Positions 13,000 through 52,037 of a DNA stretch of 64,000 bases are shown here, piece after piece. A program made the position numbers and the translations under genes. The stretch comes from an uncultured Acidobacteriota bacterium (GTDB taxonomy: Bacteria > Acidobacteriota > Vicinamibacteria > Vicinamibacterales > CAVVIG01). Location of the stretch: assembly GCA_963696165.1 (NCBI GenBank), contig CAVOIY010000004.1:44753-108752 (forward strand), given 5' to 3'. The stretch's first letter is position 1. Each line of letters begins with the position of its first letter. The notes below the pieces were generated by a model, which was given only the letters and a program-made list of their open reading frames with translations, did not search any database and was not told where the DNA came from.

Positions 13000-14137
13000 T
13001 CAATCAGCATCGTCGTCAGCGGCAGGTTCTCCGAGGGTGCCGGTGGATTTCTTCATCAGGTACGATTTGATCAACCCGTCGAGATCTCCGTCGAGGACGC
13101 GGTTCACGTCGCCGATCTGCTCCTTCGTCCGATGATCCTTGACGAGCTGATACGGATGCAGCACGTAGCTCCTGATCTGGCTGCCGAATGCGATTTCTTT
13201 CTTCGCGCCGCCGATCTGTTCGAGCTTCGCCTGGTTCTCTTTCATCTTGAGATCGTACAGGCGCGCCTTGAGCACGCGCATCGCGGAATCGCGGTTGCGA
13301 TGCTGCGATCGCTCGTTCTGGCATGACACGACCATCCCGGTCGGCAAGTGTGTGATGCGGACCGCGGAGTCTGTCACGTTGACGTGCTGGCCGCCGGCGC
13401 CGCTCGATCGATACGTATCGATGCGAAGATCTTTCTCTTCGACCTGGATGTCGACGTCTTCCGGCAGTTCGGGCCAGACGTACACGGAGGCAAACGACGT
13501 ATGGCGGCGCGCCGCCTGGTCGAAGGGCGAAATCCTGACGAGCCGATGCACGCCGGCTTCGGCCGAGAGCAGGCCGTAGGCGTATTCGCCCGACACGGTC
13601 AACGTCGCGCTCTTCAGCCCGGCTTCGTCGCCTGGCTGGTAGTCGATCATCTCGCGCTTGAACCCTCGACGCTCCGTCCAGCGAAGGTACATCCGCAGCA
13701 GCATCTCGGCCCAATCCTGAGACTCGGTGCCTCCCGCGCCGGGATGAATCGTGAGGATCGCGTTCGTCCGGTCGTGCTCGCCGCCGAGCATCTTCTTGAT
13801 CTCGCCCGCCTGCACTTCCTCGGCGAGCACGTCGAGCGCTTGCGCGAACTCGGCGTCGACCGGCTCGCCCGCGTCAGCCCATTCGACGAGAACGGCGAGA
13901 TCGTCGCTGCGCTTCTTCAGCGACAGCACGAGGTCCCGGTCCTGCTCCAGACGGCGGCGTCGCTGAAGGACCTTCTGAGCTTCGGCCTGATCTTTCCAGA
14001 AATCGGGCGCGGCGGCGCGCGCTTCGAGGCGGGTCAGTTCGTCGTCCGGGCGTGCGGATTCAAAGATAACTCCGCAGGTCGGTCGCGCGTTTGGTGAGGT
14101 CCGTGTAGCGGCGCATCAAATCTTCGACGGTGGGCAT
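13000..14137 (-). CDS. prfB: peptide chain release factor 2, expressed via programmed +1 frameshift
   Basis: ORF0 is ATG 14137 .. MPTVEDLMRRYTDLTKRATDLRSYL-TGA. The +1 frame continues ESARPDDELTRLEARAAAPDFWKDQAEAQKVL.. into ORF 13000..13929, which has the RF2 body (..SGAGGQHVNVTDSAVRITHLPTG..). Confidence 0.95.
14060..14073 (-). promoter_or_regulatory. prfB +1 recoding site: SD-like GGAG, spacer, slippery CTT followed by in-frame TGA
   Basis: The minus strand reads CGG AGT TAT CTT TGA A. Compare the E. coli prfB site AGG GGG TAT CTT TGA C (from memory). Confidence 0.9.
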
Positions 14138-14157
14138 GATCTCTCCGATCAACTGTT

Positions 14158-14249
14158 ATCACGAAGTCACGAAGCCGCCACGAAGTTCACGAAACAATTC
14201 TGTACAGAACGTGGTTCGTGCGCTTCGTGATTCTTCGTGCCTTCGTGAT
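14158..14249 (-). repeat. CACGAAG/CTTCGTG-family palindromic element (copy A1) between lnt and prfB
   Basis: Read on the minus strand it starts ATCACGAAGGCACGAAGAATCACGAA (identical 26 nt to 51157-51182) and ends ..CTTCGTGAT. Central palindrome TTCTGTACAGAA. Begins 8 nt after the lnt stop. Confidence 0.85.
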
Positions 14250-14257
14250 GAGGCGAC

Positions 14258-15739
14258 CTATTGTACACGCCGCCGCACGACGACCAGCAATGCGATCGTC
14301 AGCACCACCGATGCGTATGCGAACACATCGCCGAGTCTGGAGTAGACGGTGGCGGCGGTGAGAAAGCGCGCCTCGCCGACGACGACCGACGGCTCGTAGA
14401 TCCGCGTTTCGATCAGCACGCGGCCGTAGGGATCGACCACGCCGCTGATACCGGTATTCGCGGACCGAACGAGGTACCGGCCTTCCTCGATCGCACGCAT
14501 CGAAGCCTGCGCGAAGTGCTGATAGGGCGCGGACGTCCTGCCGAACCACGCGTCGTTGGTGATCGTGGAGAGGAGCTCGCTCCCGGCGGCGACAAACTGC
14601 CGTACCAGATCCGGATACACGATCTCGTAGCAAATCGCCGTGCTCATCAGATGTGTCGTCTCCGGACCTGGTTTGGTCGCCGAGCCATCCGCCTTTAGCC
14701 GTACTTCGAGCAGCGCTGCACTCTCGCCGGGCGAGAAGTCCGACACGGCCTGCACGAGCGGCGCCGCAAAGAAGAACAGCTGCTTGAGCGGCACGTACTC
14801 GCCGAATGGAACGAGGTGCATTTTCCGGTAGAAACCGGCCGTCGTACCGTCGGCCCGGACGAGAAAGGCCGAGTTGTAGTATTTCGTCGGCACGCGCTGC
14901 CCGTTCCTCGTTTCCCACCCGATCTGATCGCTTCCGAGCAGAATCGGCACGTGCGCCTGCCGCGCGAGCGTGCGCACCTGGTCCGCGCCGGGCCGATCCT
15001 CCTCGAAATAAAACGGGGTGGACGACTCCGGCCACAACACGAGCTCTGCGCCCTCTCCGATTGCCTGACGCGTCATCCGGAGATAGCTCTGAAAGATAGC
15101 TGGCTGGCGTGCAGGATCTTCGCGCTCGCTCTGCTCCACGTTTCCCTGAACCAGGCCGATGCGCACCACGTCACCTTGCCGCGTCAACTCGCTTCGCTTC
15201 ACGCGGACGCTGCCCCATCCCGCAACGGCAACGATGATCGCCGCCACGGCGGCGAATGGCAGGTACGGTGTCCAGCGATCCGCGGGAGACGTCCGGCTAA
15301 AGCCGGACGCTACGTTCGTCGCGGCTACGGTCGTCGCGGCGAAGGCGAGCGCCGCGCTCGTCGAGGCGACAAGCGCGGATACGCCGAACACGCCGACCAG
15401 GCTCGCAAGCTGAGCGATCGGGAGCACCGTGACCTGACTGTATCCGAGCAGCACCCAGGGGAAACCGGTGAATAGATGCGTGCGCCCCAGTTCGGTCGCG
15501 GTCCAGACAAACGGCGCCGTCAGCATCGCCGTGCGGCCAGTCGCAGTCAGCAGACGGCGCATGACCATCGCAAAGACGGCCGGGAAGAGCGCCAGGTACG
15601 CGATGAGCGCGGCGTTCACGAGCACTGCGACCCACGCTTGCAGGCCGCCGTACACCATCATCACGCGCGTGATCCAGTAGAGGGTGCCGCTGAAGTACAC
15701 GGCGCCCGCGACGAGCCCGAGCGCGAACGCGCGAAGCAT
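14258..15739 (-). CDS. lnt: apolipoprotein N-acyltransferase (start codon unresolved; frame stays open to about 15846)
   Basis: Polytopic N-terminus plus a CN-hydrolase domain (..VLWPESS.., ..STAICYEIVYPDL..). Upstream of ATG 15739 the same frame encodes the expected first helix ..ALAVLSGALLALSFPKFGHPAIGWIALAPLLVALASART, but it contains no ATG/GTG/TTG. Confidence 0.85.
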   Translation of the reverse strand: MLRAFALGLVAGAVYFSGTLYWITRVMMVYGGLQAWVAVLVNAALIAYLALFPAVFAMVMRRLLTATGRTAMLTAPFVWTATELGRTHLFTGFPWVLLGYSQVTVLPIAQLASLVGVFGVSALVASTSAALAFAATTVAATNVASGFSRTSPADRWTPYLPFAAVAAIIVAVAGWGSVRVKRSELTRQGDVVRIGLVQGNVEQSEREDPARQPAIFQSYLRMTRQAIGEGAELVLWPESSTPFYFEEDRPGADQVRTLARQAHVPILLGSDQIGWETRNGQRVPTKYYNSAFLVRADGTTAGFYRKMHLVPFGEYVPLKQLFFFAAPLVQAVSDFSPGESAALLEVRLKADGSATKPGPETTHLMSTAICYEIVYPDLVRQFVAAGSELLSTITNDAWFGRTSAPYQHFAQASMRAIEEGRYLVRSANTGISGVVDPYGRVLIETRIYEPSVVVGEARFLTAATVYSRLGDVFAYASVVLTIALLVVVRRRVQ

Positions 15740-50002: not shown

Positions 50003-51148
50003 ATGCGCGTCGTGCGCACCGTAGCTGCCGCCACCATCCTGATCGTGGCGGTCGCGGCGGCATGGACCGCACGCCCTTTTGTGCACGGTCTCTCGTTCGT
50101 GATTCGCGCCGCCGACATGCACGGCGCGCCTCGACGCGCAGCGGATGTGGATGCCGAGGCCGTGCGCGAACGGATTCTCACCATCCAGACGACGCGCGGC
50201 CCGCTGCGCGGCCGGATGTACGAACCGCTTCACTCATTCGATCGAGCACTCCTCCTCACCTCCGGGCTGCATCCCGCAGGCATCGACGAGCCCCGCCTCG
50301 TCGCGCTGGCGCGGCAGCTTGCAGCTTCGGGTCTCGGCGTCTTCACACCCGACATCGAGGAGCTGTCGCATTTCGCAGTGACGCCCGCGATCACCGATCA
50401 GATCGAAGCCGCGGCGGTCTGGCTCGCCGATCACGTCGTCGGGCAGCGCGGCCGACGTGTCGGATTGATGGGGATCAGCTTCAGCGGCGGCCTCTCGGTC
50501 GTCGCGGCAGGACGCCCATCGCTGCGCGACCGGGCGGCCTATGTTTTCAGCTTCGGCGGTCACGATGATCTGCCGCGCGTGCTGCGGTATCTGTGCACCG
50601 GCGTCGATGGCACTGAGCAGCGGCGTCCGCACGATTACGGCGTGGCAGTGATTCTGCTCGGCGTCGCCGAGCGAGCGGTCCCGTCCGCGCAAGTGGAGCC
50701 GCTGCGCGCCGCCGTGCGACGTTTCTTGTGGGCATCTCACTTGGACCGCGTGGACAAGGCTGACGCCGATCGTGAGTTCGCGTCGCTGCGCGCAGTGGCT
50801 GCGACGCTTCCCGAACCATCGGCAACATTTCTGCGCGACGTCAACGATCGAAACGTCGCGGACCTCGGCCCTCGGCTTCTGCCCTACATCGGGTTCTACG
50901 GCGGCGCGCCATCGCTGTCGCCCGATCGTTCAGCGAAGCCGTCGGCCCCCGTGTTCCTTCTGCACGGCATCGAGGACAACGTCGTGCCGGCCATTGAATC
51001 CGAATACCTCGCGCGGGACCTTCAATCGGCCGCGCCGACGCGTCTTCTGCTCAGCGGCCTTATCTCGCACGCGGAGGCCGACCAGCCGGTGCACGCCGCC
51101 GACGTCCTGAAGCTGGCGAGTTTCTGGGGGGACGTGCTGTCGCGCTGA
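50003..51148 (+). CDS. membrane-anchored alpha/beta-hydrolase fold protein
   Basis: ATG 50003 MRVVRTVAAATILIVAVAAAW (anchor/signal). Nucleophile elbow ..VGLMGISFSGGLSV.. and a C-terminal ..VFLLHGIEDNVVP..SH.. The frame is intact. Confidence 0.75.
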   Translation: MRVVRTVAAATILIVAVAAAWTARPFVHGLSFVIRAADMHGAPRRAADVDAEAVRERILTIQTTRGPLRGRMYEPLHSFDRALLLTSGLHPAGIDEPRLVALARQLAASGLGVFTPDIEELSHFAVTPAITDQIEAAAVWLADHVVGQRGRRVGLMGISFSGGLSVVAAGRPSLRDRAAYVFSFGGHDDLPRVLRYLCTGVDGTEQRRPHDYGVAVILLGVAERAVPSAQVEPLRAAVRRFLWASHLDRVDKADADREFASLRAVAATLPEPSATFLRDVNDRNVADLGPRLLPYIGFYGGAPSLSPDRSAKPSAPVFLLHGIEDNVVPAIESEYLARDLQSAAPTRLLLSGLISHAEADQPVHAADVLKLASFWGDVLSR

Positions 51149-51156
51149 CCCCGATC

Positions 51157-51225
51157 ATCACGAAGGCACGAAGAATCACGAACAAGAAATCTTCGTGGGC
51201 TTCGCGCCCTTCGTGGCTTCGTGAT
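51157..51225 (+). repeat. CACGAAG/CTTCGTG-family palindromic element (copy A2) between the hydrolase gene and rluB
   Basis: ATCACGAAGGCACGAAGAATCACGAACAAGAAATCTTCGTGGGCTTCGCGCCCTTCGTGGCTTCGTGAT. It begins 8 nt after the upstream stop and ends 11 nt before GTG 51237. Confidence 0.85.
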
Positions 51226-51236
51226 AAACCTGTACG

Positions 51237-51912
51237 GTGGAACGTCTACAGAAAATCCTGTCGCAAGCGGGAATCGCCTCGCGCCGCGCCAGCGAAGCGC
51301 TGATGCTCCAGGGGCGCGTCAGCGTGAACGGCGTCACCGTGCGCGAGCTCGGGACGAAAGCCGATCCAGCGCACGACGACATCCGCGTGGACGGCCGGCG
51401 CGTGAAGATCGCCGAGCATCATCGCTACCTGCTGCTGAACAAACCGCGCGGGATACGTCACGACGCGCTCCGATCCGGAGCGGCGTCCGACGGTGATCGA
51501 TCTGCTGAAGGGCGTGCGCGAGTACGTCTATCCGGTCGGGCGGCTCGATTTCGATTCCGAGGGTCTGCTGATCCTCACCAACGACGGCGATCTTGCGGCG
51601 CGACTCACCCATCCGAGGCACGAGGTGGCGCGCGTCTACGAAGTGCAGGTGCTCGGCGTTCCGGACGATCACGATCTCGAGCGGCTCCGCCGCGGCATCA
51701 TGCTCGACGGCCGGCGTACGCAGCCCGCGGACATCCGCGTCGTGAAGCCAGGCCTGCTGCTGATCACGATTCGCGAGGGGCGCAACCGCCAGGTGCGGAA
51801 GATGTGCGACGCGATCGGCCATCCGGTCGACCACTTGCGCCGCATCGCGATCGGACCGCTGAAAGATGCGCGCCTGAAGCCTGGCTACTGGCGGGACCTG
51901 ACGGCCGGATGA
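51237..51912 (+). CDS. rluB: RsuA/RluB-family rRNA pseudouridine synthase (S4 domain + catalytic domain); one frame break near 51470
   Basis: VERLQKILSQAGIASRRASEALMLQGRVSVNG.. (S4). ..YVYPVGRLDFDSEGLLILTNDGDLA.. has the catalytic Asp (ORF 51493..51912), and ..REGRNRQVRKMCDAIG... Confidence 0.85.
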
Positions 51913-52037
51913 AGTGAGAAAGCTTCAGCGGGCCACGGCGAGAAGAGCGCTCCACACAAAAAACGGCAAACTCTCCACCACAGAGGGCAAGGCGAGACGC
52001 GGAGGACGAGACCGCAAGAATGAGTGTCAGCGGTTCG

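Follow-up and report, generated by a model that had tools for sequence, protein, structure and literature searches.

A1, the 92-nt imperfect palindrome lying between lnt and prfB, is an ordinary member of a dispersed repeat family rather than a dedicated lnt-prfB regulatory signal. The family is built from a repeated 7-nt word, a typical copy of about 88 nt consisting of four CACGAAG heptamers (spacings 8, 10 and 9 nt), a TGTACA centre and four CTTCGTG heptamers, and 41 hairpins together with 31 solo arms, about 70 copies in all, are scattered over the 4.82-Mb genome. Probably A1 is a gene-less, REPIN-like offshoot of a system that pairs a nuclease with a repeat, a non-autonomous copy within a family whose nuclease would recognise the arrays and make or maintain the copies. 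The family and its nuclease partner appear to be an undescribed variant of the theme in which a nuclease gene is accompanied by its cognate hairpins, with a mechanism that we infer.

The window (the whole 64,000-nt stretch of DNA analysed) belongs to a 4.82-Mb, 65% GC assembly, and the records that match it come from Acidobacteriota of the Vicinamibacteria type. The 4.8 Mb, in 5 contigs, reach a CheckM completeness of 53%, and about 74% of the genome lies under clean ORF calls. Many genes look split by frame changes, such as the S4-domain gene at 51237-51917, which shifts frame from about 51493. This pattern suggests long-read indel errors, so that pseudogene calls, including the frameshifted GxxExxY gene on contig C5 described below, are unsafe.

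A1 and its twin in the window

The features of the two sites are as follows.

13000..14137, minus strand: prfB, with ATG at 14135-14137 and main frame 13000-13929; PCRF and RF-1 matches
14138..14157, minus strand: 20-nt tail from A1 to prfB, with a Shine-Dalgarno-like GGAGAG at 14141-14146; missing from the empty sites of relatives
14155..14252, no strand: A1 as delimited by the family consensus, reaching about 5 nt past the outer heptamers (terminal logo of 113 arm ends)
14158..14249, minus strand: A1 core, 92-nt imperfect palindrome read in the lnt/prfB direction; predicted hairpin of -47.1 kcal/mol, z -5.4
14160..14194, plus strand: A1 arm 1, with CACGAAG at 14160, 14168 and 14179 and CACGAAA at 14188; spacing 8, 11, 9
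14201..14206, no strand: A1 centre TGTACA; GTAC is central in 25 of 41 hairpin copies
14214..14247, plus strand: A1 arm 2, with GTTCGTG at 14214 and CTTCGTG at 14223, 14233 and 14241; mirrors arm 1
14258..15739, minus strand: lnt (apolipoprotein N-acyltransferase), with stop TAG at 14258-14260; CN_hydrolase and LNT_N matches
14260..14265, minus strand: TACAAT at the lnt end, a possible -10 box of a leaderless prfB mRNA (from sequence comparison)
51157..51225, plus strand: A2, a shorter copy with 3+4 heptamers and a short loop; its neighbours are a hydrolase-like gene and an S4-domain pseudouridine-synthase-like gene

Read on the minus strand, the lnt stop (TAG, 14260-14258) is followed by 8 nt (GTCGCCTC), by A1 (14249-14158, beginning ATCACGAAG and finishing CTTCGTGAT on the gene strand), by a further 20 nt and by the prfB ATG at 14137; prfB itself has a programmed +1 frameshift site, CTTTGA, at 14060-14065. 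At the second site the order is TGA at 51146-51148, 8 nt, A2 at 51157-51225, 11 nt and GTG at 51237. An earlier note, made from the letters of the window, had described the A1 palindrome correctly, 8 nt past the lnt stop, and had rightly paired it with A2: both elements start 8 nt after the upstream stop and finish 20 nt (A1) or 11 nt (A2) before the next start, and the exact 26-mer common to them, ATCACGAAGGCACGAAGAATCACGAA, has exactly two occurrences in the window (0 expected from shuffles). This 26-mer has no further occurrence across the 4.82-Mb genome. Within the genome family the first 24 nt are identical in 0.27% of arm pairs from different copies, so the A1/A2 identity is an event of about 1%, a mild one that is suggestive of a shared sub-lineage at most. 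Missed at that first reading were the structure of the arms, which are arrays of four heptamers, and the fact that the arms also bracket a nuclease gene elsewhere in the genome. The ends first assigned to A1 and A2 fall about 5 nt short of the family consensus, which runs about 5 nt beyond the outer heptamers, as TTCAT-CACGAAG, at both ends (113 arm ends), as against outer flanks of CTCAT and ATAAC in A1.

Two further claims about the pair did not survive comparison with the rest of the family. A fixed position 8 nt after the stop had been proposed as a rule, yet over the copies the first heptamer begins anywhere from 1 to 34 nt after the stop and only A1 and A2 have that value; these distances come from a home-made codon-bias frame call, which is crude because of the many apparent frameshifts of the assembly. 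Likewise, the shared polarity of the twins carries no meaning, since the element is dyad-symmetric and each arm, followed inward along the strand to which it belongs, gives CACGAAG-purine-CACGAAG and the spacing 8/10/9.

The junction that A1 occupies has a candidate signal of its own. In at least four related genera TACAAT (TAAAAT in one genome) overlaps the lnt end and precedes the prfB ATG by 6-7 nt, and in several relatives this spacing has the geometry of a leaderless mRNA, which makes the motif a possible -10 box; in this genome A1 stands between TACAAT and the prfB ATG. At the lnt 3′ end of one relative (G009), eight tandem heptamers of the forms GACTGAG, GACTGAT and GACTGGC, with period 7, reach the TACAAT motif. 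A sigma-70-like promoter scan found none, and a terminator scan of 13900-14500 returned no intrinsic site, the U-tract being missing and the stem being followed by AUAACAGUUG. The spacer that holds A2 (51149-51236, before the S4-domain gene) also has a history of its own: heptamer hairpins occur there in many genera whatever the upstream gene, as CACGAAG hairpins, CACGAAG remnants, GCAGATT or GGCAGGA types, which suggests a recurrent or very old landing site upstream of the S4-domain gene.

A repeated DNA word and the question of an RNA fold

CACGAAG is by far the commonest phased heptamer genome-wide, with 65 triple arrays, and a control pattern read in reverse gave 0 matches in the genome. 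Smaller phased-heptamer families of the same genome use the words CACAAAG, CACGGAG, GAGAACC, TAAGGAT, GGCAGGA and GAATGCA (arrays of minor words stand, for example, at C1:876225, C2:529031, C2:246638, C1:1224512 and C4:367458), and several of them are likewise hairpins at gene ends. The same terminal CAT-CACGAAG-N-CACGAAG arrays are found in Phycisphaerae, Verrucomicrobia, Beta- and Gammaproteobacteria, Chloroflexia, Gemmatimonadales and other groups, and a strict pattern gave 0 matches to the repeat among IMG/VR viral contigs. That A1 and A2 are copies of a dispersed repeat with inverted terminal arms, as had been supposed, is supported, the copies being present or absent among relatives.

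How the arms are read is indicated by which of their positions are kept. Over the copies the heptamer positions are about 96% conserved and the spacers are nearly random. Where a paired heptamer position is altered in at least one arm, pairing is kept in 4 of 74 cases, and spacers of equal length are only 19% identical (that is, complementary) between arms, below the random expectation; the spacers, notably the first, are purine-rich on each arm's own strand. The hairpin centres show a weak TTTGTACAAA consensus only, without covariation. Since the spacers are non-complementary while the heptamers are conserved, and since 4/74 changes are compensated, the arms point to recognition of a repeated 7-nt word on double-stranded, or strand-symmetric, DNA and to no selected RNA helix. 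The same compensation count rules out compensatory evolution or RNA covariation in the arms, and the non-complementarity of the two arms' spacers rules out an origin of the gene-less copies by fold-back of one cassette end.

The earlier note had named an intercistronic RNA element as one of two possibilities, beside a MITE-like one, and in its full form this alternative holds that A1 is selected for stabilising the 3′ end of lnt, for processing by RNase III or for an attenuation that uncouples lnt from prfB, and that the family is kept for host use. The predicted folds are indeed stable, A1 forming a long, interrupted hairpin of -47.1 kcal/mol (z = -5.4) and A2 one of -33.9 kcal/mol (z = -4.5), and a hairpin placed 5-8 nt after a stop could contact the terminating ribosome. 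The copies, moreover, nearly always lie just 3′ of a stop codon in transcribed junctions: of the 23 contexts that were classified, 17 have co-directional genes, 5 are convergent and only one is divergent, as against an expected divergent share of 19-23% (p about 0.02-0.05). REP elements are known to stabilise the mRNA upstream of them, and Correia elements serve as targets of RNase III; both facts count in favour of such a role. The distribution, however, would be explained equally well by the purging of insertions from genes and promoters, and the remaining evidence speaks against selection on an RNA: with 4/74 changes compensated and the spacers anti-complementary, the symmetry is that of double-stranded DNA and not of one RNA strand. 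An Rfam covariance-model search on A1 gave 0 matches at E<=1, so that the element stands without an Rfam family as well as without a U-tract terminator or a fixed spacing; most related genera have an empty junction, and in the same-genus genome G001 the orthologous copy is decaying and has lost heptamers. We therefore regard a selected RNA element as improbable, and the recognition of a DNA word as the reading that agrees with the arms. Any effect at the RNA level is probably a by-product. On the predicted fold, the A1 hairpin would form in any read-through or promoter-proximal transcript; A1 would thereby place a stable hairpin in the lnt-prfB transcript, where prfB would depend on the Shine-Dalgarno sequence of the tail.

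In orthologous copies the heptamers diverge by about 13% as against about 43% for the spacers and about 25% for third codon positions, figures to be read with the ambiguous alignment inside repeats in mind. The slower divergence of the heptamers could reflect host constraint in situ or could be an artefact of repeat alignment.

Gain, decay and the absence of target duplication

The lnt-prfB synteny is kept across the order, and comparison of the junction among genera shows what A1 has been added to. Three other genera have little sequence separating the lnt stop from the prfB start, namely 4 nt (G013), 5 nt (G002) and 15 nt (G006); a degenerate half arm is found at the site in G014, and other sequences in G009 and G010. 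The same-genus genome G001 has an orthologous A1 with damaged or lost heptamers and an identical 20-nt tail, AACAGTTGATCGGAGAGATC. By this comparison A1 is an insertion into the lnt-prfB junction, one that would have entered a gap of 4-5 nt in the ancestor of the genus and would since have been inherited vertically while decaying.

Other copies have been gained and lost on the same scale. When 14 of them were compared with G001, about 8 were shared, 2 cleanly absent and 2 half-deleted in G001, and three short forms in this genome (G000) are internal deletions of the full-length orthologs. G001 lacks the copy at C1:569002, and so do most of 11 other related genomes in which the site was recovered, the site being clearly empty in 6-9; at the empty sites the two ABC-transporter genes either overlap (GTGA/ATGA) or are separated by 5-21 nt. 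Because it is absent in G001 and at most of the recovered related sites, this copy was gained after the genus split. It is the newest copy, and it is only about 86% identical to its nearest paralogue. A separate site differs in another way: at C1:496046-496121 a CACGAAG hairpin stands in this genome, and the orthologous site of G001 (C2:2539454-2540009) holds a hairpin with AAAAGGC/GCCTTTT arms, which seems to keep 9 nt of the loop of the CACGAAG copy, CAAGAGTTC. Arm replacement, nesting or independent insertion could each account for it.

A search of the 41 copies for target-site duplications of at least 3 nt, made at a range of boundary offsets, found none, and only the AT that belongs to the palindrome itself is repeated. 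In A1 and in the C1:569002 copy the inserted block carries a tail of 20-30 nt which has no family resemblance and is not found beside other copies, and both tails examined supply the Shine-Dalgarno sequence of the downstream gene. These private tails fit no simple cut-and-paste or copy model. Flanks brought along from a donor copy are excluded, nothing being common to them beyond chance matches of 10-12 nt.

The genome also contains a classical candidate for a mobiliser.

C1:324567-324905: RAYT-type Y1 transposase gene (PF01797), the only PF01797 gene in the genome

This gene is flanked on both sides (C1:324370-325141) by a perfect 24-nt palindrome, GGTGCCAGGCACGTGCCTGGCACC, which has 32 copies at up to 2 mismatches, so that a classical REP/RAYT system coexists with the CACGAAG family and is separate from it. 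The RAYT as mobiliser of the CACGAAG repeats is ruled out by its having a REP of its own. That A1 is an ordinary MITE or REP moved by a DDE transposase or by this RAYT is accordingly the reading to which we attach the least probability: terminal inverted repeats, small size, lack of coding capacity and high copy number would suit it, and so would the presence of a RAYT-type gene, yet no target-site duplication of at least 3 nt accompanies the copies, the only PF01797 gene has its own unrelated palindrome and lies 84 kb from the nearest CACGAAG element, and the only gene found between CACGAAG arms is a PF13366 gene. The label MITE-like, used in the earlier note, accordingly holds for the inverted terminal arms and the small, non-coding, multi-copy character of the element and fails for the target-site duplication and the associated transposase. 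Correia elements, the MITEs of Neisseria, offer the same partial likeness: they too are non-coding inverted repeats of about 100 nt in operon junctions, are co-transcribed as hairpins and have internal-deletion variants, whereas the present family has no TA or other target duplication and no transposase-bearing parent IS, and has subterminal heptamer arrays.

The GxxExxY cassette and the known nuclease-repeat systems

At C5:124069-124550 the same arms, with the same termini (TCAT-CACGAAG ... CTTCGTG-ATGA) and the same spacing as in A1, enclose about 460 bp. The coding sequence inside them is that of a GxxExxY protein (PF13366, TIGR04256), the only gene found between CACGAAG arms; it is split by a frameshift at C5:124263-124284 in this assembly, which may be an assembly error. 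Two other PF13366 loci of the genome are bracketed by arrays of other words, CACGGAG and CCGCAGAG.

C2:691150-691950: intact GxxExxY gene between CACGGAG arrays
C3:139350-139950: GxxExxY gene remnant between CCGCAGAG arrays

The association is general, since nearly all PF13366 genes in 41 related genomes have inverted arrays of 3-4 heptamers on both sides, and one Phycisphaerae copy likewise has arrays around an intact GxxExxY gene. Arm type is clustered on the protein tree, with 13 changes as against 24.1 for shuffled labels (0/200 shuffles as low), a co-phylogeny that is expected from physical linkage alone too. In 13 genomes the cassette of the CACGAAG clade, the single-substitution variants CACGAAA and CCCGAAG included, is a single-copy feature found directly 3′ of mazG; like the loci of RAYT genes, this one is fixed and passed on vertically. 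At least 10 CACGAAG arrays are present in 11 of 13 genomes with the cassette vs 1 of 12 without it (Fisher p = 2e-4, within the family and ignoring kinship). An apparent anti-correlation between an intact nuclease gene and the number of repeats, seen with a strict pattern, was gone with a looser one. Some of the mazG-linked cassettes have arms multiplied in tandem (G021:C57:12161-13108 and G004:C27:104601-105400): four units of 46 nt, each with 3x CACGAAG, stand on one side, and the other side has additional arm sets. Arms are thus amplified locally.

The GxxExxY protein itself, of about 125 aa, is of the PD-(D/E)XK type, and its residues E...D...ExK are conserved. Its AlphaFold model is confident (pLDDT 94), and the best fold matches in the PDB, all weak, are Cas4 SSO0001, lambda exonuclease and a tRNA-splicing endonuclease; among solved structures there is no sequence relative. 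The family is large, at least 7,968 clusters matching it at E<=1e-10, and a search of the literature found no description of CACGAAG repeats or of GxxExxY/PDDEXK_3 cassettes.

In the explanation that we prefer, the gene-bearing counterpart of A1 would be this single-copy cassette just 3′ of mazG, in which the arms of A1 surround the gene of about 125 aa. The nuclease would read the arrays of heptamers at the DNA level, perhaps in the form of extruded hairpins or of single strands, and would create or maintain the dispersed copies; for both steps, the binding or cutting of the arms and the driving of their spread, we argue by analogy with REP/RAYT and Ssn/NTS. Counting against this explanation is the immobility of the gene-bearing cassette, which sits at the mazG locus across the order. 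The frameshift in the CACGAAG-armed gene of this genome, unless it is an assembly error, the private tails of the inserted blocks, the low identity of the newest copy to its nearest paralogue and the possible host constraint on the heptamers weigh against it as well.

The likeness to REP/REPIN-RAYT systems lies in the general plan: there are many extragenic palindromic copies mostly at gene 3′ ends (tens to hundreds for REP), there is no target-site duplication, doublet (hairpin) and singlet forms coexist, and one single-copy, vertically inherited gene is bracketed by inverted repeat copies. The parts are different, in that the gene here encodes a PD-(D/E)XK nuclease of the GxxExxY family instead of a Y1 HUH transposase (TnpA_REP, PF01797), and the arms are 3-4 phased heptamers at 8-10-nt spacing instead of one short hairpin with a GTAG/CGTC head. 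A third comparison is with the intervening sequences of 23S rRNA that bear an ORF, which share a long two-arm stem whose loop contains a small ORF belonging to an uncharacterised family and also exist as ORF-less stems; A1 and its relatives, however, stand between protein-coding genes and not in rRNA helices, and, again as a point of difference, we know of no excision of A1-type elements.

Together with REP/RAYT, the closest published parallel is the Ssn/NTS (SRM) system, where a small GIY-YIG nuclease has dispersed hairpins on either side of its gene and cuts them as ssDNA (Chenal et al., 2025; PMC11893778). As there, a small single-domain nuclease gene has a hairpin-forming repeat on both sides, and the repeat is also dispersed in many copies, is rare inside genes and co-occurs with the gene across genomes (PMC11893778). 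The nuclease here, on the other hand, matches PF13366 only (Pfam) and is not GIY-YIG, and the repeats are dyad-symmetric multi-heptamer arrays, unlike the directional flank of NTS. Cleavage of its repeats by Ssn has been demonstrated (PMC11893778), whereas for GxxExxY the cutting of the arms is a prediction from sequence.

The parallel also allows the opposite direction of causation, in which the arrays are genomic marks that GxxExxY reads for a host function, such as restricting or steering the recombination of incoming ssDNA, and the nuclease is not what spreads them. Such a role would agree with the shared layout of a small single-domain nuclease gene flanked by its repeats with hundreds more dispersed (PMC11893778), with a gene that stays intact and fixed at mazG across an order, which suggests selection for function, and with the apparently slower divergence, between orthologous copies, of the heptamers than of the positions next to them. 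We nevertheless think it unlikely. Between sister genomes the copies come and go, are halved and suffer internal deletions in the manner of neutral or selfish DNA, the A1 ortholog decays, many relatives have neither repeats nor gene, and defence-system models (PADLOC) gave no match for GxxExxY. To our knowledge, moreover, GxxExxY has no link to competence or defence. The dispersed hairpin repeat is, on its face, selfish-looking, in keeping with the non-autonomous, nuclease-dependent copy that we take A1 to be.

A broader generalisation may be put forward tentatively, though it is at present more doubtful than credible: GxxExxY together with phased-heptamer hairpins could be a third independently evolved class of small nuclease with its own dispersed repeat, after RAYT/REP and Ssn/NTS. 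Clade-specific 7-nt words (CACGAAG, CACGGAG, CACAGAG, CGCAGAG and others) would be repeated 3-4 times per arm, and copies would be made or maintained from the fixed locus 3′ of mazG and would settle in tight gene junctions.

In the genomes that carry them, the hairpins have practical consequences. They split operon junctions, setting lnt apart from prfB and a likely promoter apart from the start codon it would serve. Gene callers and assemblers are confused by them, and strain typing can make use of the lineage-specific insertions that they mark. If the link between nuclease and repeat is true, a very large uncharacterised family would gain a function, that of a sequence-programmable nuclease reading short repeated words, and the widespread unannotated intergenic repeats of soil bacteria would be explained.
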